A stretch of 64,000 bases of DNA from an uncultured Pseudomonadota bacterium (GTDB lineage: Bacteria; Pseudomonadota; Alphaproteobacteria; RF32; CAG-239). Below the pieces are notes generated by a model. That model was not told the origin of the DNA. It saw nothing but the letters and a program-made list of their open reading frames with translations, and ran no database searches. Numbering within the stretch: position 1 is the first letter of the stretch; each line of letters starts with the position of its first letter. The position numbers and the translations under genes are program-made. Below, in pieces: positions 8,395 to 61,548 of this stretch. Where the stretch lies: contig CADAAN010000006.1 of the NCBI GenBank assembly GCA_902785935.1, forward strand, positions 4,309-68,308, in the 5' to 3' direction.

Positions 8395-9552
8395 CTATTT
8401 TTTGCTGATTTGTATCATTTTGTTAATGGTATCGTTCAATTTATCGCGTAGGTGTTCAACACCCAAATTGACGTAAACTTGCGTGCTTTGCAGACTTTTG
8501 TGGGTTAAGGCTCGTTTTACCATAAAAGCATCAGCCCCGTTTGCTATCAGATATGTACCTAAGGTATGTCTAAGGTCGTGAATTCGGAAATTTGTTATAT
8601 TTGCCCTGCGCAATATAATTGCCCACGATTTTTTAATATCTACCACATGACCTGATTTTGAAGTCGGAGAATAGAATATCCAATCGCTTTGAGCCGATGA
8701 TTGTCTTTGATATAAAACCTTCATTGCTTCTTCAGCCAGAGCAATCGTTACATTCTCATCTGTTTTTGTTTGCGGAATTTTCCAAATCTTAGCAGACATA
8801 TCTATGTCTTCCCATTTCATTTCAAAAACATTTGATTTGCGAGCTCCGGTAAAGATAAGCATTAAAACAATGTCACGCACCAAATCATCTTCATAAGCGT
8901 AAACCGTTTCCATAAAGCGCTTGAGTTCATTATGCTCTAAATAACGCACACGGGCTTCAACTTTGTTTAATTTGACTGATAATGCAGGGTTCCGACCGTC
9001 AAAACGTTCTTCTTTGATTGCATAGTTGAACATTGTACTGATAAGCTTAATAAAATGATTTGCTATGTAATTGCCGTTTTTGACGGATATTTGCCGATGT
9101 AATTCGCGTAGCATATCGCCGGTTATTTCTTTTAGGTGTTTTCTGCCAAGTTTACACAGCTTTGAATTCCATATTCTTTTGTAATCTAATATTGTTTTTT
9201 GCGCAAGATATCTTTCTCTGTCTGTAATAAAATCATCGTATAACTGTTGCAATAGAGTATCTTGTTTATACTGACGCTTTGTAACGTTAGGGTTTTCTCC
9301 ATCATTCATTTTCTTGCGATTTGTAACGGCGGCAATTCTGGCTTCTTCTACAGTCATAGTCGGAGATTCGCCGAGTTTAACGCGAGTATCATGCCCGAGA
9401 ACTCTTTGTCGGATATAGAAACTTTTTGCCCCGTTCGGAGTTATTTGCAGCGACAGTTTAGGCTCTACCGTATCATAATAATAGGTTCTTTTCTTCGGTA
9501 TCGGTAAGTTTTTGATATTTGTGTTGGTAAACTTAAAATGATTAGCGTTCAT
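8395..9552 (-). CDS. int: Tyrosine recombinase, P4-type integrase
   Basis: N-terminal arm-type domain (KRTYYYDTVEPKLSLQITPNGAKSFYIRQRV). C-terminal catalytic residues are in HDLRHTLGTYL and QVYVN. It lies adjacent to the tRNA fragment. Confidence 0.9.
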   Translation of the reverse strand: MNANHFKFTNTNIKNLPIPKKRTYYYDTVEPKLSLQITPNGAKSFYIRQRVLGHDTRVKLGESPTMTVEEARIAAVTNRKKMNDGENPNVTKRQYKQDTLLQQLYDDFITDRERYLAQKTILDYKRIWNSKLCKLGRKHLKEITGDMLRELHRQISVKNGNYIANHFIKLISTMFNYAIKEERFDGRNPALSVKLNKVEARVRYLEHNELKRFMETVYAYEDDLVRDIVLMLIFTGARKSNVFEMKWEDIDMSAKIWKIPQTKTDENVTIALAEEAMKVLYQRQSSAQSDWIFYSPTSKSGHVVDIKKSWAIILRRANITNFRIHDLRHTLGTYLIANGADAFMVKRALTHKSLQSTQVYVNLGVEHLRDKLNDTINKMIQISKK

Positions 9553-16038: not shown

Positions 16039-16236
16039 TTGACTTTTATTTTAAAGTATGCCATAATCAAAAGCGTAACCAAAATGGTTATGGTGTTTAG
16101 ATAACACATTCGAGTTAAGGCTCCTTTGAAAGAGGAGTTGTTGATATAAGGCAATTTTTGCTCGAATAAGACAAACTGTAACTCGACAGTTATCTAGCTC
16201 CTCCATTTTGAGATTTTTCAAGATGGATTTTTTTTT
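16039..16236 (+). promoter_or_regulatory. Leader family A, copy A1: promoter + ~160-nt structured leader + terminator
   Basis: TTGACT (16039-16044), 17 nt, CATAAT (16062-16067). The conserved GTAACCAAAATGG starts at 16075. Covarying helices are described in the findings. The hairpin TCCATTTTGA/TCAAGATGGA plus T9 ends at 16236, 30 nt before the LRR gene. Confidence 0.7.
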
Positions 16237-16265: not shown

Positions 16266-17324
16266 ATGAAGAAATATGTTTGGGTTTTTGGACTTATTTT
16301 AAGTTATAATGCACAAGCTTATGATTATAATGATTGTTTTGGTGCAAGCGGATGTCAGCCCTGTCCGAATAGTACGGACGGCAAATGTTTTTATGCTGTT
16401 GAAGGCAGCAAAATGACAATTTATGGCCCGACATCAACCGAACAAAATGCAGATGGCAGCTTAAAAGAAACAACATCGATTCCGCGTTATGCCTTTACCA
16501 ACAGCGATAATGCCAGCAATTTGCCGGAAAATATCACTTCTCTTGAAATAACAGGTAATATCACAACCGTTGAAGGTTATGCTTTTTGCTCTGCCCCTCT
16601 GACAAATGTACAATTTCCTGAGACACTTGAAACAATATCGGAATTGGCTTTTTGGAACAATAATTTATCACAAATCAATTTTCCTAATTCGCTTAAAAAT
16701 ATAGAAGAAGGTGCTTTTAATTGGAATCCATTTTCAGAAATTAATTTACCCGACGGATTAATGACGCTGGAGGGGTTAACAGGTGTTCCCCTGGGGCATG
16801 TTGTTATTCCGGATTCGATTGCAGAGGTTAAAGATGCGATTTTTTCTTCAAACTATCGTTTGCAATCATTGGTTGTCGGCGCAGACACAATGCTTGGCAA
16901 TATTTTTACCTACACAACAGGGGCTGTTAGTGTGCAATTTGATAAATTCAAGATGTTTTGCGCAGAAAATAACGGCTCATGCACAACAGCTTTGCAAAGT
17001 GCCGGTGCAACACAAGAACAAATTGCGCAAATACTGATAAGTTATACAAAAGATGACGCAACAGGCGTTTATCAAACAAGTGACGGAAAATATTATGCCG
17101 ATGTCAATTTGATGGCAAGACAAATGGCTTGCGAAAATAAGCAAAGCTGTGAAATTGCCAGTGCTGATATTCGGGCAGGTCGTCCTTTTGATATGAAAGG
17201 AAAATCTTACGCATCTGTCGATGATTTCATTCAAGGAAAATATATTCCAAAGCGTATCTATACCATCGATGAAGCCAATCATGTCGCGGGCAAGACAAAC
17301 ACTTTTACGATTCGGTATCGATAG
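16266..17324 (+). CDS. Secreted BspA-type leucine-rich-repeat protein with conserved C-terminal tag
   Basis: Signal peptide (...SYNAQA-YD), Cys-rich N-terminus, LRR_5-like repeats (ITSLEITGNITTVEGYAF...). C-terminus KRIYTIDEANHVAGKTNTFTIRYR. Confidence 0.85.
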   Translation: MKKYVWVFGLILSYNAQAYDYNDCFGASGCQPCPNSTDGKCFYAVEGSKMTIYGPTSTEQNADGSLKETTSIPRYAFTNSDNASNLPENITSLEITGNITTVEGYAFCSAPLTNVQFPETLETISELAFWNNNLSQINFPNSLKNIEEGAFNWNPFSEINLPDGLMTLEGLTGVPLGHVVIPDSIAEVKDAIFSSNYRLQSLVVGADTMLGNIFTYTTGAVSVQFDKFKMFCAENNGSCTTALQSAGATQEQIAQILISYTKDDATGVYQTSDGKYYADVNLMARQMACENKQSCEIASADIRAGRPFDMKGKSYASVDDFIQGKYIPKRIYTIDEANHVAGKTNTFTIRYR

Positions 17325-18404: not shown

Positions 18405-20579
18405 TTGAAAAACTTTGTGAGATTTTGTCTGCGTACGTTCTTTTATATCTTCAAGGTCAGATGCAACATCAAGTTTGACTTGAAGAAATTGCCTAAAAAA
18501 GGTGTTTATGTTTCAAACCACGTGTCTTATTTAGACCCGATTTTGCTCTTTGCCTTTTTGCCGGGCAATCCGATTTTTGCCTTAAACGGGCATTTGTATC
18601 GTCGAAGATTTATCCGTTTTTTGATGAAAACGGCTGATATTGTGGAATTTAATCCGATTGAACCGTCTGATTTGAAGGATTTAATCAATAAGGTGAACGA
18701 TAATCGTCTTGTGGTGATTTTTGCCGAAGGACGTATCACCGAAAGCGGCGGCTTGATGAAGATTTATGAGGCGCCGGGGCTTTTGGCGGACAAAACCAAT
18801 GCACCGATTATCCCGATTTGGATTGAAGGTCCGCAATATGGTTATTTTTCAAAGACAAAAGATAAATTGCCCCACAGACCGCTTCCTAAAATGCTGATTA
18901 CGGTCGGCAATCCGAAACCCTTAAAGCTTAAAGATGAGCTTCGTCGTCAGCGTGACCACTTAAGCAATGAAGTGTATCATATTTTGACGGATATGCAGTT
19001 TTCAATTACCTACAATCCGAATATTTCGATTTTTGCACAGCTTGTCAAAACATCTAAAGTATATTCAAAAACGGGCTTTTTCTTTAAACGTCCGATGGTG
19101 ATTGAAGATATTAACCGCAAACCGATGAGCTATAAGGATTTGTTGCTCCGTGTTTATTTACTCGGTAAGTTTTTTAAGAAAAAAGCCGCGCATATGGAGC
19201 ATGTCGGCTTGATGTTGCCGAATACAATCGCGGCTGCGGCAACGTTTTTGGGGTTATCCGCGTATGAGCGAATCCCTGTCATGCTGAACTTTTCAGTAGG
19301 TGCCAAAAACCTGATTTCAATGTGCAAAACAGCGGAAGTAAAGCTTGTGATTACGTCAATCGCCTTTATTAAAACGGCAAAAATGGAGCCGGTGATTGAA
19401 GTCTTAAAATCAAATGGTATCGAGGTCTTTTATCTTGAAAGTTTGGCTAAAAAATTAGGGATTATCAGCAAATTGGGTGCCATGCTTCGTTATAAAACAA
19501 AGCGTATCCCGCACCGTCACGGCGGCAACAGAAAAGCGGCTATTTTATTTACGTCAGGCTCTGAAGGTGCTCCGAAGGCCGTTGTTTTAAGCCATGCCAA
19601 CATTATCTCTAACATCAAACAAGTTACAACGGTCGAAACAATCAATATGAAGGATTTGGTCTTTAATGCCATGCCGATGTTCCACAGCTTCGGACTGACA
19701 ATCGGTACATTGTTCCCGCTTTTAGAGGGGGGCAGGGTGTTTTTGTATCCTTCGCCGTTGCATTATCGCGTGATTGCTGAATTGATTTATGAGCTGGGTG
19801 CGACAATTTTGTTCGGGACAGATACCTTTTTCAGAGGTTATGGACGAATCGCGCATCCGTACGATTTTTATAACGTTCGGTTTATGTATGCCGGTGCTGA
19901 GGCTGTTAAACTTGATACGCGTAATTTGTTTATGGAGCGGATGGGCGTGCGCATTATGGAAGCATACGGTGTGACGGAATGTGCGCCGTTTGTGGCAGCC
20001 AACAATCACGTTTACAGTCGATTCGGCTCAATCGGCAAAATTGTGCCGGGGATTGAGTATAAGTTAGAGCCTGTGCCCGGGATTGAAAAAGGCGGAGAGC
20101 TTGTCGTTAAAGGTCCGAATATTATGATGGGCTATATCATGCCTGATAAACCCGGGGTTTTGGTACCCTTAAAAGACGGCTGGTATCATACGGGTGATGT
20201 GGTTGAAATTGATGAAATCGGCTATGTCTTTATCAAAGACCGCATCAAACGCTTTGCTAAAATCGGCGGTGAGATGGTGTCCTTAAATGCCGTACAGGAT
20301 ATGGTTATCAAGGCTTATGAATGGATGGGGCCTGACTTTAGTTATGGTATTGTTTCCGTACCGCATGAAAGCAAGGGTGAGCAAATCGTCTTGGTCACGA
20401 ACAACAATCAGGTCAAACAGGAAGTTTTGCATGACTATATCAAAAACAATGGTATGTCTGAGCTGTTTTTGCCTCGAACCATCCTGTATCATGAAAAAAT
20501 TCCGGCCTTTTTGACAGGTAAAACCGATAACGTTACCTTGAAAAAAGAAGTGATGGAAGAATTGGGCTTAAATAAATAA
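18405..20579 (+). CDS. Second Aas-like acyltransferase / acyl-ACP synthetase paralog
   Basis: 724 aa with NHVSYLDP and FTSGSEGAPKAVVLS. Collinear with the 9998-12169 protein and roughly 60% identical by eye. TTG start with GGAG 7 nt upstream. Confidence 0.8.
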   Translation: MKNFVRFCLRTFFYIFKVRCNIKFDLKKLPKKGVYVSNHVSYLDPILLFAFLPGNPIFALNGHLYRRRFIRFLMKTADIVEFNPIEPSDLKDLINKVNDNRLVVIFAEGRITESGGLMKIYEAPGLLADKTNAPIIPIWIEGPQYGYFSKTKDKLPHRPLPKMLITVGNPKPLKLKDELRRQRDHLSNEVYHILTDMQFSITYNPNISIFAQLVKTSKVYSKTGFFFKRPMVIEDINRKPMSYKDLLLRVYLLGKFFKKKAAHMEHVGLMLPNTIAAAATFLGLSAYERIPVMLNFSVGAKNLISMCKTAEVKLVITSIAFIKTAKMEPVIEVLKSNGIEVFYLESLAKKLGIISKLGAMLRYKTKRIPHRHGGNRKAAILFTSGSEGAPKAVVLSHANIISNIKQVTTVETINMKDLVFNAMPMFHSFGLTIGTLFPLLEGGRVFLYPSPLHYRVIAELIYELGATILFGTDTFFRGYGRIAHPYDFYNVRFMYAGAEAVKLDTRNLFMERMGVRIMEAYGVTECAPFVAANNHVYSRFGSIGKIVPGIEYKLEPVPGIEKGGELVVKGPNIMMGYIMPDKPGVLVPLKDGWYHTGDVVEIDEIGYVFIKDRIKRFAKIGGEMVSLNAVQDMVIKAYEWMGPDFSYGIVSVPHESKGEQIVLVTNNNQVKQEVLHDYIKNNGMSELFLPRTILYHEKIPAFLTGKTDNVTLKKEVMEELGLNK

Positions 20580-20593
20580 GCCCAACCTGCTTT

Positions 20594-21493
20594 TTATCTG
20601 TACCTGATTTTGACCGAATTGACTTTGCCTGCGATGGCATTTGCTTCATCGATGGTGTAGATACGCTTTGGGATATAATCTCCTTTTTGCATCGCGGAAA
20701 TTGAGGCATAAGTTTTCTCACCGATACGATATTTCCCGTCAGGTGTCTTAGAATAATGAATAATTTTCGGGTTTTTACCCGTTTGAAGCGCTATTCTTGA
20801 ACATACCTCTTCGGAAGCCGCACAATATAGTTTTTGAAGGTTTGTGTTTGTAAAAGCTTCATCATCAATATTTGTCACACTATTCGGAATAACAAGTGTT
20901 TCAAGTGTTGAAATATCAGCAAGAGACGTCCAACCGATTGAGGTTACACCTTCAGGGATTTCCAGATTTTTAAGTTTTGTTCCGACAAAAGCTCTATCAG
21001 GAATTTCTGTTTGAGCCTGCCCAAGCATCAAATAATCTATTTTTGTTGCCGCAAAACTCCAAGCACCGACATATTGAAGATTTAGAGGTGTATTAATTTC
21101 TTTTAATAAATCTGCACCCTGAAATGCAGCACCGCCAATTTGTTCAATAGAATCCGGCAAATCAATACTGCTGATTTTTGTATAAGCAAGTGTATAACTA
21201 CCGATATTGGTTAAAGAATCCGGCAATGAGACACTTCGAATAGTTTCAAGTTTTTCAACCCATGGTGTTCCCGGCCTTTGGTTTTTAGAATCCCATTCGT
21301 AATTTGTCATTTTTCCGACAGGTGCATTTTCATCTTTGGCTTCAATTGAAAAAAGACCTGTCTGCTCATTTAGTCTGGCAAGGCAATTAGCGCCGCAATC
21401 CCAACAATTGATGTTTAAATCATCACCGCAAGTATTGACTGCTTTAGCTTGAGAGCTCATTGTCAGTAAAAAAAATAAAATCCATTTTCTCAT
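20594..21493 (-). CDS. Secreted BspA-type LRR protein with conserved C-terminal tag
   Basis: Signal peptide (..SSQAKA-VN), Cys-rich N-terminus, LRR_5 repeats. C-terminus KRIYTIDEANAIAGKVNSVKIRYR. Confidence 0.85.
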   Translation of the reverse strand: MRKWILFFLLTMSSQAKAVNTCGDDLNINCWDCGANCLARLNEQTGLFSIEAKDENAPVGKMTNYEWDSKNQRPGTPWVEKLETIRSVSLPDSLTNIGSYTLAYTKISSIDLPDSIEQIGGAAFQGADLLKEINTPLNLQYVGAWSFAATKIDYLMLGQAQTEIPDRAFVGTKLKNLEIPEGVTSIGWTSLADISTLETLVIPNSVTNIDDEAFTNTNLQKLYCAASEEVCSRIALQTGKNPKIIHYSKTPDGKYRIGEKTYASISAMQKGDYIPKRIYTIDEANAIAGKVNSVKIRYR

Positions 21494-21511: not shown

Positions 21512-21711
21512 AAAATAAAAAACCGTTTAAGATAAACCAAAAACGGAGGAGCTAAACGAACTGCACTAAATCAGTTAAGCTTATTCGAGGTATTAACCCT
21601 TATATCACTTACTCCTCTCTAAAGGAGTATATTTTTAGTGCAAGTGTCGTTTAAACACCGCAACCATTTTGGTTACGCTTTCATTTAAGCATATATCAAA
21701 ATACTTGTCAA
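21512..21711 (-). promoter_or_regulatory. Leader family A, copy A2: promoter + structured leader + terminator
   Basis: Minus strand: TTGACA (21711-21706), 17 nt, TTAAAT (21688-21683). GTAACCAAAATGGTTGCGGTG starts at 21676. The terminator CCGTTT/AAACGG plus T-run ends near 21512. Confidence 0.7.
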
Positions 21712-29406: not shown

Positions 29407-30540
29407 CTAACGATATCGAATCGAGAAGGTGTTTGTTTTGCCCGCCACCTGATTCGCCTCATCGACGGTATAAATGCGCTTGCCCTCATAGCCGATAATC
29501 TTGCCATCTTCATAAATGGCCGTACTTCCATCGGCTAATTTTTTAGAGTATTTAACTGCCATAATGTCAGCAAAGTCATTCGGGTCAAGCCCTGCCGCCT
29601 CAATATTTCTTTGGCACTTAGCGACAGATCCGGCACACTGTATTTCTATGTTGCTTATATCAAGGTTATCGAAAGGAGAATAAATTCTGTCATAACTAAA
29701 AAATACTTCACAGCTATCCATTTCATATGTACAGCCGGCTTCTAAAGCTTTACTATAAAGTTGTGTATAATCTTCTTCGCTCATATGGCTACGGTTATTT
29801 TCTACATTTTCTAAGCTGTAAAAATCATCTTCTATCACATATCTGCTGAATGCAAAATTAAAATCATCTGATACTGTGATTCTTTCAAGATTTTTAATAC
29901 CCTTAAAAGCACCTTCATCAATATACTCAACCGAATCTGGCAATGTAAGGCTTATCAAACCTGACATACCCATAAAAGCATCTCTCTCTATATTTGTAAC
30001 CGAATCCGGAATAGTAAGATTAGTAACGTTTCTCATATACGCAAATGCAGTATCTTCAATATTTTTCAGTGAATTTGGTAAAGTTAAATTTGTAACAGCA
30101 GTAACATCATAAAATGCACCGCTACCGATATCTTCCACCGCATTACCGATTGTTAAATTTGTTACGTTAATCATATTACTAAAAGCACGATCACCAATAG
30201 AAACCACAGAATCTGAAATTTCAATGGATGTAGCATTTGTAGCTTCTCTAAAAGCATTATTTCCAATTGTCGTTATACCTTTTTCTACAACAACAGAGGT
30301 GATATCTTCGCGAATAGCATGCCATGGCATACTGTAATGATACCAACCAGAATAATTCTTATTTTCAAAATCATCCATAGCACCAGTGCCGGAAATAGTC
30401 AAAATACCGCTATCCGTATCCAAGCTCCAATAGCAATTCTCGCCGCATTTTTTGTAGCCGCTGTTTGTACCAATAATATCTGCTTTGACGCCTGAGGATA
30501 ACAAAATAAATCCCATCATCAGAATACATTTATTTTTCAT
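29407..30540 (-). CDS. Secreted BspA-type LRR protein with conserved C-terminal tag
   Basis: Signal peptide (..SSGVKA-DI) and about 7 LRR_5 repeats (TNLTIPDSVTNIERDAFMGM...). C-terminus KRIYTVDEANQVAGKTNTFSIRYR. Confidence 0.9.
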   Translation of the reverse strand: MKNKCILMMGFILLSSGVKADIIGTNSGYKKCGENCYWSLDTDSGILTISGTGAMDDFENKNYSGWYHYSMPWHAIREDITSVVVEKGITTIGNNAFREATNATSIEISDSVVSIGDRAFSNMINVTNLTIGNAVEDIGSGAFYDVTAVTNLTLPNSLKNIEDTAFAYMRNVTNLTIPDSVTNIERDAFMGMSGLISLTLPDSVEYIDEGAFKGIKNLERITVSDDFNFAFSRYVIEDDFYSLENVENNRSHMSEEDYTQLYSKALEAGCTYEMDSCEVFFSYDRIYSPFDNLDISNIEIQCAGSVAKCQRNIEAAGLDPNDFADIMAVKYSKKLADGSTAIYEDGKIIGYEGKRIYTVDEANQVAGKTNTFSIRYR

Positions 30541-30564: not shown

Positions 30565-30864
30565 AATATAAAAAAGTTTAACCGCGCCTTTTTAAGTGCG
30601 GCGGGGAGTGAAGAAATCATGTAAACCTAAATGACTCTTGCAACCTTTAGAATAACTCTTGTACATCCTTTGCAAGCTCCCCAACCAAAACTTTGGGGAT
30701 AATCGGCATTTTATACAAAAACACCTTCAAAACAAACAGTGTTATCCGTCACTGAGGTTTACAAAAGCTTCTTCAAAGCTCCGCACCCAATACATAGGCA
30801 CTAAATGATAAGATTTCTCCCATCACTTAAGATTTATTAGAACACGTTTTGATTTAATTGTCAA
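30565..30864 (-). promoter_or_regulatory. Leader family B, copy B1: promoter + ~255-nt structured leader + terminator
   Basis: Minus strand: TTGACA (30864-30859), 17 nt, TCTAAT (30841-30836). Conserved blocks and covarying helices are shared with 41695-41952 and 61258-61513. A hairpin plus T-run lies near 30571-30606. Confidence 0.7.
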
Positions 30865-30946: not shown

Positions 30947-32410
30947 ATGAATTTTATCAAAAAATATCCGTTTCAAATTTTTTTAAGCCTGCATTTTTTG
31001 CTTTGGAGCTTTTTACCCCTTTTGCGCAAAAGCCTGCCGATGGACAGTATTGAAGCTGTCGTGTGGGGGATGTATTGCGATTTCGGTACAAACAAACATC
31101 CGCCTTTATCGGGTTGGCTTGCCGATTTTGTTTATAACATCATCGGTTTTGAACAGCCCCTTGCCATTTATATGTTAAGTCAGCTTTGTGTGCTTTTGGG
31201 ATTTATTTATATTTATCGTTTGGCACGTGAATTTATCTCTAAAGAGCGTGCAACATTTGCCGTAATGGTGCTTGCCGGCGTGATTTATTATGGTTTCAGC
31301 GCGATTGAATATAATGTCAACGTGGTATCCTTGGCTTTGTGGCCGATGACGGCCTTTTACTTTTACAAGGCCTTAGATGAAGACAAGCTTACGGATTGGG
31401 TTTTAACGGGGCTTTTTGCGGGGCTTAATCTGTTCAATAAATACACAAGCGGTATTTTGCTTTTTTCTATGGGCGTGATGATGCTTTTTGATAAAAAAGC
31501 ACGCAAACATCTGACAAGCTATAAGCCTTATGTCTGTGCACTTGTATGTACAATAACGATTTTGCCGCATCTTTTGTGGCTTATTGATCATCAGTTTTTT
31601 TCGCTCGGCTATTTTATAGGCCGTGGCTCAAAGGGCGGATTTGACAACTTTCCGCTCTTAAAGCATATTGTTTATCCCATAAAATTTATCGGGGCGCAGT
31701 TGCTTTTCGGTCTTGGCGCATTTTTGGTTTATTTTACGGCATATTACAAGCAAAAACGCTTTGATGTGAAGGCAAACCGTTTTCAAAAAAACTTTTTATT
31801 TTTTCTGGGGTTGATGCCTGTTTTATTAATGACGCTGATAAGCTTTGTTTTCGGCTTAAAGCTCAAAAGCATGTGGGGATTTCCGTGTTATTATCTTGCG
31901 GGCGTAATGCTTTTTGTGTTTTTTCCATGCAAATTAACAAGCGTGTTTAAAAAAAGGATGTATATCGGCGTCTATGCGATGCTCTTTTTGCTCTTTTTTG
32001 CGCAGGGGTGTGTCATTTTGTTTAACAAAAGCGATAAATTTCACTTAAATCAGCAGGCCTACGGGCAAATGCTTGAAGATTTGTGGCACAAAAAATACGG
32101 CCGTTTTGATTTTGCTTATGTCGCAGGCGATGTTTGGTGGGCAGACAATGCCGCACTTTTTGCTCCATCAAGGCCAAAGCCGCTGATTTGGGGTGATATC
32201 AAACAAAATCCGTGGCTTGATGAACATGATATCAATGATAAAGGCGCCTTGGTTGTGACAAGTGACAAGTTTGAATATGATGATATCAAAAATAAGCTCA
32301 AATTTGTTTCAAAGCCTGAGATTTTGGAAATTGTGGTCACAAACAGACTTGGCAAAATCAAGAAAAAAACACTTTATTATGGTTTTTATAACGTTTACGG
32401 AGAAAGATAA
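30947..32410 (+). CDS. ArnT/LgmB-like GT39-family lipid A glycosyltransferase
   Basis: 487-aa polytopic membrane protein with the architecture of undecaprenyl-phosphate-sugar-dependent glycosyltransferases. Precedes the ArnC-like GT2 gene. Confidence 0.6.
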   Translation: MNFIKKYPFQIFLSLHFLLWSFLPLLRKSLPMDSIEAVVWGMYCDFGTNKHPPLSGWLADFVYNIIGFEQPLAIYMLSQLCVLLGFIYIYRLAREFISKERATFAVMVLAGVIYYGFSAIEYNVNVVSLALWPMTAFYFYKALDEDKLTDWVLTGLFAGLNLFNKYTSGILLFSMGVMMLFDKKARKHLTSYKPYVCALVCTITILPHLLWLIDHQFFSLGYFIGRGSKGGFDNFPLLKHIVYPIKFIGAQLLFGLGAFLVYFTAYYKQKRFDVKANRFQKNFLFFLGLMPVLLMTLISFVFGLKLKSMWGFPCYYLAGVMLFVFFPCKLTSVFKKRMYIGVYAMLFLLFFAQGCVILFNKSDKFHLNQQAYGQMLEDLWHKKYGRFDFAYVAGDVWWADNAALFAPSRPKPLIWGDIKQNPWLDEHDINDKGALVVTSDKFEYDDIKNKLKFVSKPEILEIVVTNRLGKIKKKTLYYGFYNVYGER

Positions 32411-33364
32411 ATGAAAAAAGTCAGTATTGTAATTTCGGCTTATAACGAAGAAGGCAATATCGAAAAATTGTATCAGGAACTTGATAAAGAACTCAAAAAA
32501 ATCGAAAAGGTTGGCTTTGAGATTTTGTTTGTCAATGATGGTAGCAAAGACACTACATTTTTTAAAATACAAAATTTGGTCGATAAAGACAACCGCGTTA
32601 AAATGGTCAACTTAAAACGCAATTTCGGCCATGAAATTGCCATGACGGCCGGTATGGACTATGCCAAAGGCGATGCCGTGATTTTTATGGATGCCGATTT
32701 GCAACATCCTCCGCTTTATATCCCCGAGATGGTCAAAGCGTGGCAGGAAGGTTATGAAATTGTTTTGACAAAGCGGGTAGACAATGTTGCCACCTCACGA
32801 TTTTATAAATTCTGCGCCAAGACATTTTATTTTATCTTAAACCTGCTTTCTGAAACAAAAATTGGCGAAAGTATGCCCGATTTCAGATTAATTGATCGTA
32901 AATATGTCGATTTTTTAAAGGGTTTTAATGAGCAAGACAGGCTTTTCAGAGGATTGCTCAGTTGGATTATGCCCAATGACAAGGTCAAAATTATTGATTT
33001 TGTCGCACCCGAAAGATTTAGCGGTACAACAAAATATAATTTTTTCAAAAGCTTAAAACTTGCGATTGACAGCATTACACAATTTTCGGTCAGGCCGCTT
33101 CATTTAGCGACATACTTCGGTTTTTTAGGCGCAGCATGTTCTGTTTTGCTCGGACTGTATGTGATTTTTGAGCATTTTATCGAGCATAATCCGACCCCCG
33201 GATACGCTACGATTGTTTGCGTCGTCGGATTTGTCGGCGCGGTACAGCTCATCACACTCGGGATTATCGGTGAGTATATCGGCAAAATCCATATTGAAGT
33301 CAAAAAGCGCCCGCTCTATTTGGCTGATTTAATTGAACAAAAAGACAAGAACGATGACAAATAA
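32411..33364 (+). CDS. ArnC/LgmA-like GT2 polyprenyl-phosphate glycosyltransferase
   Basis: VSIVISAYNEEGNI, DGSKD and FMDADLQHPP motifs, plus two C-terminal TM helices. Confidence 0.8.
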   Translation: MKKVSIVISAYNEEGNIEKLYQELDKELKKIEKVGFEILFVNDGSKDTTFFKIQNLVDKDNRVKMVNLKRNFGHEIAMTAGMDYAKGDAVIFMDADLQHPPLYIPEMVKAWQEGYEIVLTKRVDNVATSRFYKFCAKTFYFILNLLSETKIGESMPDFRLIDRKYVDFLKGFNEQDRLFRGLLSWIMPNDKVKIIDFVAPERFSGTTKYNFFKSLKLAIDSITQFSVRPLHLATYFGFLGAACSVLLGLYVIFEHFIEHNPTPGYATIVCVVGFVGAVQLITLGIIGEYIGKIHIEVKKRPLYLADLIEQKDKNDDK

Positions 33365-34628
33365 AGTGATTTTCAATGCCGATGATTTCGGTATTTCAAA
33401 AGGCGTCAATGCCGCGATTAAAAAAGCATATGATGAAGGCATATTAAATGCCGCAAGCTTGATGGTTGGCCAAAAATATGCAAAAGAGGCTGTTGAACTT
33501 TCCAAAGAGATGAAAGATTTAGACTTAGGCTTGCACGTCAATTTAACAAACGAATATCCTGTTTCAAAGGCTCAAAATTTATCTTTACTGACGGGCGAAG
33601 ACGGTAAATTTAAGAACGGATTTGTTAAGCTTTTATGGCTCTCGATTTTCAAGCCGAAAGCCTTGCGAGATGAAGTTTATGCTGAAACAGAGGCTCAAAT
33701 ATTAAAAGCTCAAGAAATGGGGGTTCGGCTCACGCACATTGACAGCCACCGCCATGTGCATATGATACCTCTAATTTTTAAGGTTATGCTTGAATTAAAA
33801 GAAAAATACCACATCAAGCGCATACGTGTTATCAATGAATGTGCCTTTTTGACAATGAAGACAAATGCCTCAAAGTCTTATCTTTTTGACGGCGGTTTGA
33901 TTAAGTATTGTCTTTTGCGTTTTTTTGCCGTACTGAACGGATATGCTTCAAAAACCTATTTTTATACCATGCTCTACACCTGCAAGCTTTCTCAAGAACA
34001 TTTCAAAAAAGTTTTGGTCCCCGCTTGTTTTGATGATGTTGAAGTTATGATTCATCCCTCCATCACGGATATTGACAAGCCTTGCAAAGAGGATATTTTT
34101 GATGAAAGTGTGATTTCGCCGTGGCGTGAGGCAGAATTGGCAACTTTGCTTGATAAATCACTTGTCAAAAATTTTGAATTTAATGCAAAATATCCCTATC
34201 TTTACAGGCTTTATTTCAAAGTCGAGCACTTGTGGTTTAAATTTGTTCCCGAAAAATTGCGTTATTTGCTTGTGGGCGGATTTAACACGGTATTTGCATA
34301 TTTGGTTTTTGTGCTTTTGCTTCAAATCCTAAAGATGCCGTATCTTTTGGCTTTAACCGTTCAATATTTTATCACGGTTAATGTTTCAATCGCAACGATG
34401 CGTTATTACGTCTTTCAAAGCAAGGGTGATATCATCAAAGAATTTATCAAAGCGTGGGGCGTATACATTGGTGTGTTTTTGCTCAATTCCGTCGGTCTGT
34501 CGTTTTTGGTTGAAGTATGCAAAATCGAACCTGTTTGGGCTCAGGCAATTTATCTGATTTTTTCAACGATTTTGACATATATTTTGCACAAATATTTTTC
34601 TTTTCACAAAAAAATTAAGCAAAAATAA
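33354..34628 (+). CDS. YdjC/ChbG-type carbohydrate deacetylase fused to a GtrA-like membrane domain
   Basis: The N-terminus FNADDFGISKGVN...HIDSHRHVHM is YdjC family. The C-terminal 4-TM region RYLLVGGFNTVFAYLVF is GtrA-like. ATG 33354 overlaps the upstream stop by 11 nt. Confidence 0.7.
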   Translation: MTNKVIFNADDFGISKGVNAAIKKAYDEGILNAASLMVGQKYAKEAVELSKEMKDLDLGLHVNLTNEYPVSKAQNLSLLTGEDGKFKNGFVKLLWLSIFKPKALRDEVYAETEAQILKAQEMGVRLTHIDSHRHVHMIPLIFKVMLELKEKYHIKRIRVINECAFLTMKTNASKSYLFDGGLIKYCLLRFFAVLNGYASKTYFYTMLYTCKLSQEHFKKVLVPACFDDVEVMIHPSITDIDKPCKEDIFDESVISPWREAELATLLDKSLVKNFEFNAKYPYLYRLYFKVEHLWFKFVPEKLRYLLVGGFNTVFAYLVFVLLLQILKMPYLLALTVQYFITVNVSIATMRYYVFQSKGDIIKEFIKAWGVYIGVFLLNSVGLSFLVEVCKIEPVWAQAIYLIFSTILTYILHKYFSFHKKIKQK

Positions 34629-40815: not shown

Positions 40816-41673
40816 TTAGCGATACCGAATCGAAAAAGTGTTTGTCTTGCCTGCAACTTGATTGGCCTCATCGATGGTGTAAATGCGCTTTGGTGCGTAA
40901 TGTTGATTGTAAATATCATTTGGGGAACTGTAAAACCTTCCGTTATAATAATAACCTGTTGAGTATTTTTGATAAAATTTAATTTTATCGCCAATTTCTT
41001 CATCGTCTAAAAGAGCCTGACAACTGGCATTTGTGTCTTCGCAATAAATAGCCAAAGATTCTGACAATGCTTTATTTATGGAATTAGTAAGCATTTTTTT
41101 TGTAATCATGGTCGAACCGGATATGGTTAAAGATTTCAATTCCGTGCCGCCTAATGTCCAATCTTCATCTTCAAGAATAACATCTTTGGGTAATACAATA
41201 TCTTCAACTTTTGTACGATTAAAATTAGCCCCTCCGATAAAAGTCAGACTATTTGGTAAATTAATTTTTTCAAGTGATTGAGTATCATTAAAAGCACCAC
41301 CCGAAATCTTTTGAAGTCCTTCGGGTAAAACAGCCTCTCGCAAATCAAACAAATATTCAAAAGCAGAAGAACCAATTGATTTAAATATTTTATCACTTGA
41401 TTCGTTTTCGATAACGACTTTATAAATTTGTGAAGAATAGGCTCCCCAATCGGCTGTATTATGGCACCATGGGTCACAGCTGTGACTATAATTTTTCATA
41501 TCACCATAACCTTTAATGGTTAATGTATTCGTGTTTTTATCAAGTGTTGCTGTACAACTATCATTTGAGGTTGCCGCACAGTCAAATGTACAAATATCAC
41601 TGTTATCACAAAGTGTATCAGCATATGTATTAAAAGCCGTAAATATACAAAAAATATAAATTACTTTTCTCAT
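40816..41673 (-). CDS. Secreted BspA-type LRR protein with conserved C-terminal tag
   Basis: I placed the true start at ATG 41673 (MRKVIYIFCIFTAFNTYA-DT, with GGAGAA 7 nt upstream). The 67-codon N-terminal extension in the track ORF runs through the conserved leader RNA. C-terminus KRIYTIDEANQVAGKTNTFSIRYR. Confidence 0.85.
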   Translation of the reverse strand: MRKVIYIFCIFTAFNTYADTLCDNSDICTFDCAATSNDSCTATLDKNTNTLTIKGYGDMKNYSHSCDPWCHNTADWGAYSSQIYKVVIENESSDKIFKSIGSSAFEYLFDLREAVLPEGLQKISGGAFNDTQSLEKINLPNSLTFIGGANFNRTKVEDIVLPKDVILEDEDWTLGGTELKSLTISGSTMITKKMLTNSINKALSESLAIYCEDTNASCQALLDDEEIGDKIKFYQKYSTGYYYNGRFYSSPNDIYNQHYAPKRIYTIDEANQVAGKTNTFSIRYR

Positions 41674-41694: not shown

Positions 41695-41987
41695 AAACGA
41701 AAAAACCACTCTAAAATGAGCGGCGGGGAGTAAAAGAATCATGTAATGGAAAATGACTTCCGTAACCTTTAGGTCAAAACCTTGAACATACGCCACGGAC
41801 TCCCCAACCAAAATATCGGGGATAAGCATTGTTTTAAAATAAAAAAACAACACTAAAACAGCGTTATCTCTCACTGTCCATTACAAAAGCTCTTTTAAAG
41901 CCCCGCACCCTTTTCGGGTACTTGATAGAAAAAGCCAAAACCTTCCTATCTGATTTATATTATTACATATCAAAAACATCTTGTCAA
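41695..41987 (-). promoter_or_regulatory. Leader family B, copy B2: promoter + structured leader + terminator
   Basis: Minus strand: TTGACA (41987-41982), 17 nt, AATAAT (41964-41959). Conserved blocks as in B1 and B3. The terminator CCGCTC/GAGTGG plus T5 lies near 41697-41726. Confidence 0.7.
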
Positions 41988-45086: not shown

Positions 45087-45986
45087 TTATCGATACCTTA
45101 TTTTGAAAGAATTAACCTTGCCCGCGACGGCATTCGCCTCGTCGATGGTATAAATGCGGATATCGGCACGAGCAGGAACAGATGGCAAGACAGATGGAGA
45201 AACAGTTCCTGATGCTGAAGCAATTTTTGCTCTGCAAGAAGTCTCCGTTTCGCAACCCTCTTCCGTTCCTCCCAACATCATTTTTGCTGCTGAAGAGTAA
45301 TAATTATCACCAACTTTATATACCCCATCTTCTTTAGTATATTGTTCAATTTTTGACGTCCCATGGCCTTTACAAATATTAACATCTTCGCAAAAAAGTT
45401 TTGTGTTGCTGGCAAACGGAAAGTTAACAATTGTTGTTCCTCTGCTAATAATGACATTGTTCAAGGATTCATTTTGAAAGCTACTTCCAAAAGCATCCTG
45501 ATTAATTTTCGTTACACCGCTTAAATCAATATCATGCAGGTTGGTTGTATATGTAAAAGCGCCACTTCCAATTTCTTTAACTCCTGTAAAATCCACACTC
45601 GACAAAGCAGATCGCGAAAAAGCGGTTCCGCCGATTGATGTAACACCGCTTGCAAAAGCAAGTGAGGTTACACCTTGAGGAAGCATTGATGTCCCATAAG
45701 TGTCATCTGCAAAAGCTGATCTCGGTACTTTGTATGTGAGATTGCCGTTTGAATCTGTTGAAGTAATTGATGACCCCTGAATGGTCATTTTTCCGTTATC
45801 AATAGTGTAGTATGTGAGCATATGAGAGGCATAGCTACTGGCTTGCGACAAACATCCTTCGCCATAAGTTGAAACACAAGCCTGACAAAATGTGTTCCCT
45901 TCAGGGCACTCAATTAAAGCAATGGAAATTTTTGAAAATGAAACTGTTGCTACTAATGCCGAGGTTAAAAAAATATTTCTAGTCAT
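45087..45986 (-). CDS. Secreted BspA-type LRR protein with conserved C-terminal tag
   Basis: N-terminal signal-like segment, Cys-rich region, LRR_5 repeats (VTSLAFASGVTSIGGTAFSRS...). C-terminus IRIYTIDEANAVAGKVNSFKIRYR. Confidence 0.85.
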   Translation of the reverse strand: MTRNIFLTSALVATVSFSKISIALIECPEGNTFCQACVSTYGEGCLSQASSYASHMLTYYTIDNGKMTIQGSSITSTDSNGNLTYKVPRSAFADDTYGTSMLPQGVTSLAFASGVTSIGGTAFSRSALSSVDFTGVKEIGSGAFTYTTNLHDIDLSGVTKINQDAFGSSFQNESLNNVIISRGTTIVNFPFASNTKLFCEDVNICKGHGTSKIEQYTKEDGVYKVGDNYYSSAAKMMLGGTEEGCETETSCRAKIASASGTVSPSVLPSVPARADIRIYTIDEANAVAGKVNSFKIRYR

Positions 45987-46020: not shown

Positions 46021-46212
46021 AAAAAATCACTTCAGAAGATATCCGAAGTGGGAGCTAGAAAACTGTATACATTCAGTCAGACTTATTCGACATTTCAAAA
46101 CGCTTATATCATCTACTCCCGGTAAAAGGAGCGATATGTATAAGGTGTTTTCTAGACACCGCAACCATTTTGGTTACTTTTTTATTTTCACATAAAAAAC
46201 GTAGCTTGTCAA
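46021..46212 (-). promoter_or_regulatory. Leader family A, copy A3: promoter + structured leader + terminator
   Basis: Minus strand: TTGACA (46212-46207), 17 nt, GAAAAT (46189-46184). GTAACCAAAATGGTTGCGGTG starts at 46177. The terminator CACTTCGGA/TTCTGAAGTG plus T6 ends at 46021. Confidence 0.7.
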
Positions 46213-52252: not shown

Positions 52253-52843
52253 TTAGTAGTCCCCTCTGATTACATGATAAAACCGACAGCTATCTAAACT
52301 TGTTTCACATGCCTGACAGCCCTCAATGATATCAGACATTTTGACCTCCGTAATACCTCCTGTAGGCCAATATATATCCTTACCGCCCACCTCTATCAAT
52401 CCGCCTGTCCACCATTCAACCGGGACGGCATTTTCCCATCCTGCAGAGGCAAAAGCAATACACGATTTTGAATCGGTGAAATGGATAACAAATTCACCCT
52501 GAACATATGAACCACCGCTATCATAAAAATCCATATTCAGCGTTCCTATCGGAAGTTTGCAAGCCTCGTCTCCATTAAGATCCGTTGTTACTTGACAATC
52601 CGGTAAAAGCCCGTATTGAATTAAATCTTCGGCATCACGAATCTCAATACCTTCTCCCCAGCCTTTTTGCTCCAACTCCATAAAGCGTTGAAGAATTTGA
52701 TTATATGTGTCAATTGTTTGATTCATTTTGTATTTAAACATTGCGGCAGAATAACCTTTGAGTGCGCCCGCCGACAACACACCGACAATAGCCAACACGC
52801 CCAGCATTTCAACCATACTTCTACCTATTTCATTAATTTTCAT
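52253..52843 (-). CDS. Type IV pilin / pseudopilin-like protein
   Basis: The N-terminus MKINEIG-RSMVEMLGVLAIVGVLSAG has a prepilin-type signal with Glu at +5, followed by a hydrophobic helix. Confidence 0.75.
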   Translation of the reverse strand: MKINEIGRSMVEMLGVLAIVGVLSAGALKGYSAAMFKYKMNQTIDTYNQILQRFMELEQKGWGEGIEIRDAEDLIQYGLLPDCQVTTDLNGDEACKLPIGTLNMDFYDSGGSYVQGEFVIHFTDSKSCIAFASAGWENAVPVEWWTGGLIEVGGKDIYWPTGGITEVKMSDIIEGCQACETSLDSCRFYHVIRGDY

Positions 52844-52863: not shown

Positions 52864-53061
52864 AAAAAAAATTCCGTTTTATATAACCAAAAACGGAGGA
52901 GCTAACTAACTGCCATTGTACAGCTTGCTTTATTCGCGCATCACTAAAATACCTTATATCAGCAACTCCTCATCAAGGAGCTATACAATGGATGTGTTAG
53001 TTAAACACCGCAACCATTTTGGTTACATCCTGATTATTTCATACAAAAGCATAAAAGTCAA
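52864..53061 (-). promoter_or_regulatory. Leader family A, copy A4: promoter + structured leader + terminator (pilin-like gene)
   Basis: Minus strand: TTGACT (53061-53056), 17 nt, AATAAT (53038-53033). GTAACCAAAATGGTTGCGGTG starts at 53026. The terminator CCGTTTT/AAAACGG plus T8 ends at 52864. Confidence 0.7.
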
Positions 53062-59994: not shown

Positions 59995-60609
59995 TTAGTA
60001 GAATTTCCAAGAAACCGTTGCTTGTTCGGTGCATGTAGCTACAGCACCTGTACCCGAAGCTCCGCCCATCGGATAAGGTTTACCCTCATCAGCACCTAGT
60101 ACTTTACCTTTGGCATAATTTGTACCGGTAGAAGCTTCAATTTCTACACCGATAAAACCCGAACCGGCACCCGAACCAAAATCAGCCGTTGCAAGTGCAA
60201 TGCAAGCCTCCTTAGGTAATCCTTTGTAACTGATTACAAAGGCTGTTGGTTTTGCATCACCAGTAATTGCTGTATTGACAGCAGAAATTGTATTTGAAGT
60301 AGCCATAGCTTCTAAAATTTGAACACTTCCTTTAAATGGGTTTGTTAAAGCGGCAGGAGATGTACCCATTACAGGCGGAACAATTCCTAAACTGACAGCT
60401 TGTGTCGCCAAGCCGGCGTAGTTACCCTGCTGTCCATACATTGTTCGGATGTTTGTCACAAGCATTGTGATTTGTTCCATTGTCGTGTTGAGTTTGTGTT
60501 TGAACATCGCTTTTGAATAGCCTGCCAAACCGCCGGCTGACAAAACACCGATAATCGCCAAAACACCAAGCATTTCAACCATTGAACGACCATTTTGATT
60601 ATTCTTCAT
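59995..60609 (-). CDS. Type IV pilin / pseudopilin-like protein (distal gene of pair)
   Basis: MKNNQNG-RSMVEMLGVLAIIGVLSAGG. The first ~65 aa are nearly identical to the upstream paralog. C-terminus ..VSWKFY. Confidence 0.8.
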   Translation of the reverse strand: MKNNQNGRSMVEMLGVLAIIGVLSAGGLAGYSKAMFKHKLNTTMEQITMLVTNIRTMYGQQGNYAGLATQAVSLGIVPPVMGTSPAALTNPFKGSVQILEAMATSNTISAVNTAITGDAKPTAFVISYKGLPKEACIALATADFGSGAGSGFIGVEIEASTGTNYAKGKVLGADEGKPYPMGGASGTGAVATCTEQATVSWKFY

Positions 60610-60648: not shown

Positions 60649-61230
60649 TTAATAGAACTTCCAAATGATTGTGTTTTTTGCACCTGCACAATCACTAACT
60701 GCATCAGCCATTTCATACGCTTTTCCCTCAGCACGTTTGTTTGCAATGCCTGTACCAATGACTATAGAAGATCCATCTGCTGAGGCTGCTGCAGTACCTG
60801 TTTTATCGGCTATAACACCTACAAAACCTGAACCTGCGCCTGAACCAAAGTCAGACGTTGCCAAAGCAATACAAGCTTCTGTTGGTAAACCATCAAAAGC
60901 GACTGTAAATGATTCATTGTTTGTACCTGTAGCAACAATATTAACATTACCCTTAAATGGGTTTGTAAGTGTGGCTCCACTACCCATAACAGCCGGAACA
61001 ACACCAAGACTTGATGCTTCTGTATTTGTTAATCCCGCATAATTTCCCTGTGTGCCGTACATTGTACGGATATTCGTCACAAGCATTGTGATTTGATCCA
61101 TGGTGGTATTGAGTTTGTGCTTGAACATGGCCTTTGAATAACCTGCCAAACCGCCGGCTGACAAAACACCGATGATGGCAAGTACGCCAAGCATTTCGAC
61201 CATACTACGGCCGTTTTCGTTATTTTTCAT
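60649..61230 (-). CDS. Type IV pilin / pseudopilin-like protein (proximal gene of pair)
   Basis: MKNNENG-RSMVEMLGVLAIIGVLSAGG, Glu at +5. C-terminus ..IIWKFY. Confidence 0.8.
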   Translation of the reverse strand: MKNNENGRSMVEMLGVLAIIGVLSAGGLAGYSKAMFKHKLNTTMDQITMLVTNIRTMYGTQGNYAGLTNTEASSLGVVPAVMGSGATLTNPFKGNVNIVATGTNNESFTVAFDGLPTEACIALATSDFGSGAGSGFVGVIADKTGTAAASADGSSIVIGTGIANKRAEGKAYEMADAVSDCAGAKNTIIWKFY

Positions 61231-61257: not shown

Positions 61258-61548
61258 GTAAAACCGCCCCTAAAAGAGCGGTCGGAGAGTTAAACAATCA
61301 TGGATTAGAAAATGACTCCGACAACCTTTAGATTAAAAATCCTGAACATTCGCTACCGGCTCCCCGACACTTTTCGGGGATAATGTGCTATATTTAAAAT
61401 AAAAAATAACACCACATCAATACAGTGTTATCCTCACTGTCTAATCCAAGAGTTGTTTAAAACTCCGCGCCCGTCTCAGGCACTTGATAGAAAAAGTCAC
61501 CTCTTTCTATCCGACCATTATTTAACAACACAAATGCTTAATTGTCAA
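61258..61548 (-). promoter_or_regulatory. Leader family B, copy B3: promoter + structured leader + terminator (pilin-like operon)
   Basis: Minus strand: TTGACA (61548-61543), 17 nt, TTAAAT (61525-61520). Conserved blocks and covarying helices as in B1 and B2. The hairpin CCGC/GCGG plus T-rich tract lies near 61258-61285. Confidence 0.7.

Follow-up and report, generated by a model that had tools for sequence, protein, structure and literature searches.

A 64-kb stretch of DNA from an uncultured alphaproteobacterium (contig CADAAN010000006.1; the whole stretch is called the window here) contains five genes, g1 to g5, that encode exported leucine-rich repeat (LRR) proteins ending in a common tail of 24 residues. 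This tail, which we describe with g3 as the focal gene, is a real, undescribed and lineage-restricted C-terminal motif. A role in localisation is its most plausible reading, and it most likely docks the LRR proteins to a common partner in the cell envelope, possibly a type IVb pilus. In our preferred explanation, to which we assign a probability of roughly 0.4, the tail serves as an invariant handle, for docking or export, at the C-terminus of BspA-type LRR binding proteins that are exported and form a large, recombining repertoire.

The tail and the proteins that carry it

Translation of g1 to g5 showed that all five proteins end in [KI]RIYT[IV]DEANx[VI]AGKxNx[FV]xIRYR with a stop codon immediately after, and a six-frame scan found exactly five copies of the motif in the window. 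The five translations also share a Sec-type signal peptide and a Cys-containing N-terminal segment, and all five proteins match PF13306 (LRR_5) above the Pfam gathering score (E 8.6e-11 to 2.4e-50). An earlier reading of this DNA (the original prediction) had named the five open reading frames (ORFs), the coordinates of their tails and the common N-terminal features, and it was correct in each. It had also placed the start of g4 at 41673; the longest ORF of this gene extends to 41874, and 41673 is the start from which a signal peptide is obtained. No relatedness was found among the five genes in the DNA 3' of the stop codons.

The search of public databases that the original prediction proposed was carried out with a tail-only profile against 1.84 billion proteins, with cluster representatives at 50% identity. 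A tail-only word-index search gave short fragments only, and an exhaustive profile search was used instead. This returned 512 cluster representatives at E<=1e-3 and 236 at E<=1e-10. The tail comprises the last 24-25 residues and ends at least 228 database proteins. As had been claimed from the window, it always lies at the extreme C-terminus: this was the case in 54/54 complete genomic copies and 228/228 collected proteins, and the profile match reached the last residue of the protein in 150/150 of the matches listed. The consensus of the 228 proteins is [KR]-R-I-Y-T-[IV]-[DE]-E-A-N-x-V-[AT]-G-x-x-N-x-[VFI]-x-I-[RK]-Y-[RK]-COOH, in which Tyr -2 is found in every protein (228/228), Asn -8 in 226/228 and Ile -4 in 224/228. 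The last residue is always Arg (190/228, 83%) or Lys (38/228) and never aromatic. A minority of the tails have one residue more (...VAKPTGNT[VF][RK]I[KR]Y[RK]). In more than 90% of the proteins a dibasic [KR]-R stands ahead of the tail core. The tail is basic, with a net charge of +3 to +5, and its terminal segment alternates between hydrophobic and basic residues. It has no hydrophobic stretch (maximal 15-residue hydropathy 0.85, mean 0.02, in the last 45 residues of 188 proteins).

Signal-peptide-like N-termini were present in 178 of 188 tail proteins, with almost no lipoboxes. Across 146 family members, two N-terminal Cys residues and two in the C-terminal flank are nearly invariant, so that pairs of Cys flank the LRR region. 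Given the Sec signal peptides and these conserved pairs, the LRR-tail proteins fold outside the cytoplasm. The same observations bear on whether the tail could be a one-step secretion signal (type IV or type I), similar to the positively charged C-termini of VirB/D4 substrates. An Arg/Lys-rich tail at the extreme C-terminus of proteins from Alphaproteobacteria would suit such a signal, but the cleavable Sec signal peptides in nearly all members and the conserved Cys pairs imply a periplasmic intermediate, and no type IV or type I secretion system genes were seen in the DNA examined. A type IV secretion C-terminal signal was rejected because of the signal peptides and Cys pairs, and we regard one-step secretion as extremely unlikely.

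Among reference genomes sampled at one genome per species, the motif occurs in only four metagenome-assembled genomes (MAGs), all from rumen or reticulum and labelled Alphaproteobacteria or 'uncultured proteobacterium'. The exact tail core was also found in six projects among 241 million metagenome records of the Joint Genome Institute (JGI). Both estimates rest on exact-core patterns. Every named carrier of the tail is labelled 'Alphaproteobacteria bacterium'. One of the MAGs, RUG11221, has 49 loci with 50 tail copies. The window itself is part of a scaffold from a rumen metagenome (STEW19-1).

LRR_5 was found on 145/146 family members and, in a second set, on 37/38 carriers. The sole apparent non-LRR passenger is at locus L037:3197-4108. 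Here the final ~35 codons of an LRR-family gene, with the tail among them, are fused in frame to an ORF that is TPR/SNAP-like and has a membrane segment at its N-terminus; this is probably either a chimera formed by recombination or a gene in decay. The tail is not a modular tag, as no passenger type other than LRR_5 carries it. When the neighbour genes at 53 loci and in the window were clustered, no recurrent non-LRR family and no linked processing or export gene emerged. The idea of a modular sorting domain on diverse passengers was therefore not upheld. Tail-less LRR_5 homologues of Firmicutes type (P0092, P0104, P0124) have a dockerin (PF00404) at the position of the tail. Two other tail-less LRR_5 homologues, from another lineage (P0113, P0122), end alike in ...DP[HD]WTN[YH]P[CV]R[FH]YRIRSP with no Pfam or NCBIfam match, and this ending may be another uncharacterised terminal motif on LRR_5 passengers.

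Peptide selection, structure and comparison with known signals

The tail DNA of g1 to g5 is 61-88% identical in pairwise comparisons (mean about 74%), with a proportion of synonymous differences (pS) of 0.73 and of nonsynonymous differences (pN) of 0.12. The earlier estimate of about 75% identity with mostly synonymous differences thus holds. In 108 unique tail DNA sequences pS was 0.77 and pN was 0.18, and invariant residues use all of their synonymous codons; for instance, Ile -4 is encoded by ATC in 39, ATT in 38 and ATA in 31. Column identity is 81% in the tail vs 36-56% in other regions of the same proteins, and pairwise identity is 69% vs 31% elsewhere. Since synonymous sites are saturated and the amino acids invariant, conservation acts on the peptide and not on the DNA. 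The tail is under strong purifying selection at the peptide level, as the original prediction had proposed.

We modelled g2 and g3 with AlphaFold using a 146-sequence alignment built from database matches. The g2 model (mean pLDDT, the per-residue confidence, of 91) has an LRR solenoid and a small C-terminal subdomain at 94-98, after which confidence falls along the tail (86, 78, 69). The only secondary structure in the g2 tail is a helix at IDEANAIA. In the g3 model there is a helix at residues 359-366, and pLDDT is about 50 in the last residues and below 50 in the final 3. Both models give the last ~10 residues of the tail the lowest confidence and no secondary structure. Two short beta strands around a turn had been expected for the tail; AlphaFold instead places a short helix at [IV]DEANx[VI]A and leaves the end beyond it unstructured. 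The drop in confidence in both models indicates that the amphipathic end of the tail is not positioned on the domain to which it belongs, and on these two predicted structures the tail does not appear to be confidently packed onto the LRR body. The top Foldseek matches were the BspA-type LRR surface proteins 4h09, 4fs7, 4gt6, PcpA and TpLRR, and both PF13306 and the LRR solenoid fold place the proteins in the BspA-type LRR family.

These models are relevant to the suggestion that the tail is a structural element acting in cis, which in this family would pack on conserved parts of its own LRR domain and so cap it at the C-terminus or help it to fold. Such a role would fit the occurrence of the tail only with LRR_5 bodies, the confident small subdomain just upstream of it and its moderate pLDDT (70-86) over the helix. 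It fits poorly with the low confidence and lack of secondary structure in the last ~10 residues of both models and with a column identity of 81% in the tail vs about 43% in the domain that it would stabilise, with invariant polar residues T, D/E, E, N and N. The linkers ahead of the tail also vary in length and type, endings swap between unrelated bodies and identical bodies occur with different endings (see below). We consider a cis cap to be rather improbable.

No Pfam or NCBIfam model, including the NCBIfam curated models of C-terminal sorting signals, matched the tail at E<=10, which agrees with the earlier statement that it matches no known sorting domain. In a PDB profile search the tail matched nothing but the N-terminus of ribosomal protein L1, locally and by chance (KIYTIDEA, E 0.26-0.9). 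The motif string gave nothing relevant in the searchable literature, and the literature on rumen Alphaproteobacteria endosymbionts and on BspA contained no description of the LRR-tail family.

We compared the tail with several known types of C-terminal signal. The type IX secretion system (T9SS) C-terminal sorting domain, as in Tannerella BspA, is also found at the C-terminus of Sec-dependent BspA-type LRR surface proteins and has a final strand that alternates between hydrophobic and basic residues. It is, however, a beta-sandwich of ~70-100 residues that occurs in Bacteroidota on many passenger families, whereas the tail has 24 residues only and is carried by Alphaproteobacteria. A type A T9SS domain was rejected on these grounds and because neither TIGR04183 nor PF18962 matched full proteins or isolated tails at E<=10. 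One Bacteroidota-like homologue has a T9SS match of 16 bits vs a cutoff of 23, and because this is sub-threshold only, we did not rely on T9SS equivalence in Bacteroidota-like homologues. PEP-CTERM, LPXTG and GlyGly-CTERM signals also occupy the extreme C-terminus of exported proteins with many paralogues per genome. Each of these combines a signature motif with a transmembrane helix and a basic cluster, and co-occurs with an enzyme of its own (sortase, exosortase or rhombosortase). In the tail, a hydrophobic helix is lacking and no NCBIfam model matches, and no such enzyme was linked to it at the 53 loci and in the window. An outer-membrane protein (OMP) beta-signal or autotransporter was rejected since 228/228 proteins end in Arg or Lys and the AlphaFold models contain no barrel. 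Covalent attachment of the Braun lipoprotein (Lpp) type needs a C-terminal Lys, through whose epsilon-amine L,D-transpeptidases make the link to peptidoglycan, and only the pattern ...[RK]-Y-[RK] resembles the lipoprotein. Thus, the lack of a hydrophobic helix, the basic charge and the non-aromatic end exclude sortase- and exosortase-type signals, the OMP beta-signal and, for the 83% that end in Arg, Lpp-type attachment.

Dockerins, found on cellulosomal proteins that include LRR_5 proteins of rumen Firmicutes, resemble the tail in being a small conserved C-terminal module on many differing paralogues that docks non-covalently to a common scaffold, and they occur at the same position in LRR_5 homologues. 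Dockerin-cohesin specificity types are also conceptually similar to the variant endings of the tail described below. The dockerin is a Ca-binding fold of 60-70 residues with a Pfam model, as opposed to a tail of 24 residues carried by Gram-negative organisms, and it was rejected as an identity for the tail because no tail-bearing protein matched PF00404.

A pilus-independent envelope anchor would work without covalent linkage: the basic tail would bind lipopolysaccharide (LPS), peptidoglycan or an outer-membrane protein, for instance by beta-strand augmentation, and in this way tether the LRR module to the cell. The net charge of +3 to +5 and the alternating hydrophobic and basic terminal strand are consistent with this. 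The Braun lipoprotein ends in ...KYRK, which the terminal ...[RK]-Y-[RK] resembles, and homologues in other phyla have anchoring or docking modules at this position. There is also the sub-threshold T9SS match of one Bacteroidota-like homologue. From what is known of Lpp chemistry, linkage through the Lys epsilon-amine would be excluded for most of the proteins, as Arg is last in 83%, and a last residue that is never aromatic is unlike the OMP beta-signal. An anchor of this kind also offers no route across the outer membrane and leaves the co-regulation with pilin genes (see below) unexplained. We regard it as unlikely, though it deserves consideration.

Exchange of tail endings and shared leader RNAs

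The last ten residues of the tail occur as a few discrete endings, or flavours: xKNRVSI[KR]YR, KVNSVKIRYR, KTNTFSIRYR and the KPTG type. Ending frequencies are genome-biased (36/50 in RUG11221, compared with 11/69 when the window and the JGI set are combined; Fisher p=1e-9). Within one flavour pS is 0.60-0.85 and pN is 0.01-0.02. Synonymous sites are saturated within flavours, which shows that the flavours are of old origin and that each of them is kept as a unit. Near-identical proteins often differ in flavour, and bodies with an identity of only 30% can have the same ending. When bodies are 80-90% identical, the two proteins of a pair differ at 14% of body residues, 12% of tail residues -24 to -11 and 36% of the last ten residues, which is 2.6x the body.

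A few well-resolved pairs provide the evidence for cassette exchange. In L119:1487-2447 and L120:966-1926, an LRR body of ~950 bp is 99-100% identical from ~15 bp upstream of the ATG into the first tail codons. Both flanks of this body are unrelated, the leaders are of different types (B vs A, described below) and the tail endings differ. Judged from this alignment, the shared body points to exchange of a cassette between loci. In a syntenic pair formed by g2 and locus L012 of RUG11221, identity is ~90% up to the end of the tail core, drops to 50% in the last 30 nt and returns to ~85% in the next gene; these orthologues are 87% identical, and 6 of the final ten residues differ (20597-20626 vs L012:957-986). 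On the basis of these two patterns, the tail core is a recurrent recombination junction. Bodies and endings thus appear to be reshuffled while selection maintains the peptide. The original prediction had assigned the conservation of the tail to selection "rather than recent gene conversion"; selection does account for the conservation, and recombination with breakpoints inside the tail is nevertheless common. We considered the flavours as proof of co-evolution with a partner, but this argument is weakened by their age, indicated by the saturated synonymous sites, and by their exchange through recombination.

The breakpoints raise the question of whether the conserved 3' block serves mainly as DNA homology for the exchange of LRR cassettes in the style of antigenic variation. 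The L119/L120 breakpoint in the first tail codons, the fall in identity over the last 30 nt of g2/L012 and the 2.6x divergence of the last ten residues would all be expected from this. On the other hand, synonymous sites in the tail are saturated (pS 0.73-0.85) with invariant amino acids, and a fixed distance to the stop codon and an amino-acid periodicity have no DNA-level rationale. The use of the tail for breakpoints looks passive, as it is the only conserved stretch. We find a recombination handle very unlikely. Both this and the cis cap are disfavoured by direct evidence, namely the models, the conservation, the synonymous saturation and the exchanged endings. Anaplasma Msp2 and Neisseria pilE/pilS likewise have conserved termini around a variable centre, and here it is the central cassette that moves, with breakpoints in the conserved ends. 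They differ in that the tail genes are full-length and scattered with their own leaders, and there is no single expression site with silent donors.

The genome bias of the endings also bears on whether the tail is directed at a host or prey. In this case the tail would bind a eukaryotic target (for example, in a rumen ciliate) or a microbial one after release, or cleavage at the dibasic K/R-R would free a peptide. BspA-like LRR families are typical host-interaction proteins, the dibasic [KR]-R precedes the core in most of the proteins and the genome matches are confined to rumen and reticulum MAGs. Genome-biased flavours fit a genome-encoded partner better than a common external target, and the DNA examined contains no sign of an intracellular lifestyle or of effector-translocation machinery. 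It also seems wasteful for dozens of genes to release one peptide. A host- or prey-directed motif therefore appears quite improbable.

All five LRR-tail genes in the window are preceded by structured leader RNAs of two types, A and B. The type A leader is ~110-130 nt long with the conserved elements CTCCTT..GAGGAG..GAUAUAAG..hairpin..CGAAUAAG..CUG[loop]CAG..CUCCUC. Its two long-range helices, P1 and P2, differ in sequence in nearly every copy while complementarity is kept (P2 0.92 vs 0.64 +/- 0.014 and P1 0.98 vs 0.72 +/- 0.015 in mismatched controls), and their non-Watson-Crick pairs are solely G.T on the sense strand. In further covarying helices of type A, 97.3% of cells are paired and the covariation score is 0.599 vs 0.174 in shuffles (0/500). 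The type B leader is a three-way junction closed by GGGGAG/CUCCCC with the conserved loops GUAUGUWCA and CUAAAGG, and a terminator-like hairpin comes after it; 98.3% of cells are paired and the covariation score is 0.408 vs 0.200 (0/500). Both types contain a triplet capable of alternative pairing (C-rich, G-rich, C-rich) and, by eye, a hairpin and U-run just before the ribosome-binding site; a terminator scanner calls the hairpin in 3/7 window leaders. Three type A leaders have a promoter-like site upstream. When the window was searched with Rfam 15, only two tRNAs reached the gathering threshold, and the best sub-threshold match was PyrR (21.7 bits vs 54, E 0.42). Thus, A and B are two undescribed classes of structured RNA with strong covariation, and type A is a candidate riboswitch or attenuator.

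Within the window, 5/5 LRR genes and 2 pilin loci have a leader ahead of them, and no other gene does. Of 81 leader copies, 72 are located before LRR-tail genes and 2 before type IVb pilin genes; a single copy stands before another ORF (L105, a methyltransferase-like protein), and the remainder reach a contig end. Over 40 kb of a second MAG, leaders occur before 4/4 LRR-tail genes and one pilin pair and before 0 of ~35 other genes. These results show that LRR-tail genes are co-regulated with type IVb pilin genes via common leader classes.

The window contains three pilin genes, and paralogues with nearly identical N-termini (GRSMVEMLGVLAIIGVLSAG), often in tandem pairs, are found at L123:9380-10624 and L124:10001-11288. 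The pilin family has 5,109 database proteins and occurs in the same MAGs, with at least 8 paralogues in one MAG. An ORF of 688 aa located after a pilin pair was tried as a minor pilin and rejected, being a membrane coiled-coil protein. Directly downstream of the tandem pilin pair is a fragment (76 aa) of an IS200/IS605-type Y1 transposase (~59540-59770, minus strand, in the window, equivalent to L122:4931-5161). The scaffold ends 3.5 kb past the pilin genes.

Proposed docking, genomic setting and significance

How type II secretion and type IV pilus systems recognise their substrates is described as still poorly understood (PMC10120004). TcpF of Vibrio cholerae and CofJ of enterotoxigenic Escherichia coli are Sec-dependent exoproteins with a flexible terminal export signal of ~24 residues outside the fold (PMC10120004). 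They dock via a key aromatic residue on the minor-pilin trimer that sits at the type IVb pilus tip and are then carried through the secretin (PMC10120004). The LRR-tail proteins resemble them in several ways. Signal peptides and models indicate that these are also Sec exoproteins with a flexible terminal segment of ~24 residues; the critical aromatic, Tyr5 in TcpF and Phe10 in CofJ, has a counterpart in the invariant Tyr -2; and in both cases a disulfide in the adjacent region secures the protein body. The tie to type IVb pilin genes is made by an operon in the one case and by leader RNAs, in two genomes, in the other. There is no sequence similarity to the tail.

In the proposed mechanism, the LRR-tail proteins would first be exported by Sec with the tail left free. 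The free tail, a short helix followed by the amphipathic terminal strand x-[VFI]-x-I-[RK]-Y-[RK]-COOH with its invariant penultimate Tyr, would bind in trans to one conserved, genome-encoded partner in the envelope. This partner would take the variable LRR module to the cell surface or hold it there, and the tail flavours would match variants of the partner. The favoured partner would be the co-regulated type IVb pilus, with docking on a minor-pilin cap and passage through the secretin in the manner of TcpF and CofJ.

Several points favour a docking handle: the terminal position of the tail, the export of its carriers, selection on the peptide, the tail unpacked in cis, interchangeable bodies and endings, purifying selection on each flavour and genome bias of the flavours. 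To these are added the dockerin at the same position in Firmicutes-type homologues, the leaders held in common with pilins and the precedent of TcpF and CofJ. Other points weigh against it. No tail-binding partner was identified, and no pilus ATPase, secretin or large minor pilin was found in the window and ~60 kb of related contigs (~120 kb in all). The signals of TcpF and CofJ are N-terminal and serve a single substrate encoded inside the pilus operon, whereas the tail is C-terminal and encoded by dozens of scattered genes. With one passenger type only, the tail could be a feature intrinsic to the family and not a general signal. A tail pLDDT of 70-86 over the helix is not that of a truly disordered segment. 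Common leaders indicate co-regulation and not physical interaction, and genome-biased flavours could stem from drift and gene conversion without a partner.

A more far-reaching form of the docking proposal, which we put forward only tentatively, is that the tail is the signal for export and docking of a hitherto unknown substrate class of the type IVb pilus, or of a related type IV filament, in rumen Alphaproteobacteria. One machine would then display or secrete dozens of recombining LRR binders, with flavours pairing with pilin variants and the repertoire being switched by the two new riboswitch-like or attenuator leader classes.

Table 1. LRR-tail genes, their tails, pilin genes and leader RNAs in the window (positions are those of the window).
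Feature	Coordinates	Strand	Evidence and details
g3, focal gene	29407..30540	-	signal peptide, Cys-containing N-cap, BspA-type LRR_5 repeats, low-confidence insert, C-terminal tail; translation, Pfam LRR_5 E=2.4e-50, AlphaFold
g3 tail, KRIYTVDEANQVAGKTNTFSIRYR	29410..29481	-	translation, six-frame motif scan
g1, LRR-tail gene	16266..17324	+	tail 17250-17321, KRIYTIDEANHVAGKTNTFTIRYR
g2, LRR-tail gene	20594..21493	-	tail 20597-20668, KRIYTIDEANAIAGKVNSVKIRYR; syntenic orthologue is locus L012 in MAG RUG11221
g4, LRR-tail gene	40816..41673	-	tail 40819-40890, KRIYTIDEANQVAGKTNTFSIRYR
g5, LRR-tail gene	45087..45986	-	tail 45090-45161, IRIYTIDEANAVAGKVNSFKIRYR
Type IVb pilin-like gene (Bundlin/PilS, N-methylation motif)	60649..61230	-	Pfam PF08805 E=7.8e-14, PF05307 E=6.8e-13
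Second pilin of tandem pair	59995..60609	-	Pfam PF05307 E=1e-13
Third pilin paralogue	52253..52843	-	no Pfam match; clusters with the other two by BLAST; same N-terminus, GRSMVEMLGVLAI
Type A leader and terminator-like hairpin, g1	16099..16227	+	nhmmer E=7e-21; P1, P2; covariation; terminator 16202-16227, promoter-like site 16039-16067
Type A leader, g2	21545..21652	-	leader profile, helix pairing
Type A leader and terminator-like hairpin, g5	46028..46153	-	terminator 46050-46028, promoter-like site 46212-46184
Type B leader, g3	30600..30685	-	leader profile, pairing, covariation
Type B leader and terminator-like hairpin, g4	41705..41807	-	terminator 41724-41705
Type A leader, pilin gene 52253-52843	52895..53002	-	nhmmer E=5.6e-20; promoter-like site 53061-53033
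Type B leader, pilin pair 60649-61230 and 59995-60609	61281..61368	-	nhmmer E=8.8e-21

The LRR genes of the window sit singly among Gram-negative housekeeping genes (Lpt, Mla, IleRS, NusG, BipA, GAPDH and a CcrM-like methylase). Divergent from g3 is a cluster predicted to encode a GT-C (PMT_2/ArnT-like) protein, a GT2 protein and YdjC-GtrA (30947-34628, plus strand), which could have a role in lipid A or LPS modification or in protein glycosylation. There are two paralogous genes for an Aas-like acyltransferase plus AMP-binding protein, at 9998-12169 (minus strand) and 18405-20579 (plus strand). One adjoins the Mla operon and the other is convergent with g2, and the same pairing is seen in related MAGs (loci L012, L123). 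A low-GC island (30-33%) at 1-9552 is probably an integrated mobile element; it contains a tyrosine integrase (8395-9552), an AbiEi antitoxin (7542-8303), a helix-turn-helix/pentapeptide protein, an Hsp70-like protein, an ATP-grasp protein and a GT1 glycosyltransferase.

If the tail is only a family-specific structural feature, the finding reduces to an annotation marker for this lineage. Little is understood of the short linear signals by which folded periplasmic proteins cross the Gram-negative outer membrane or are placed on it. With one invariant 24-residue peptide common to more than 500 diverged proteins, the tail is an unusually clean and testable candidate for such a signal, accompanied by natural flavour variants and a candidate co-regulated partner. 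New as well are the two classes of leader RNA that precede both the pilin and the LRR families, and the apparent exchange of cassettes in the surface-protein repertoire of an uncultured rumen lineage.

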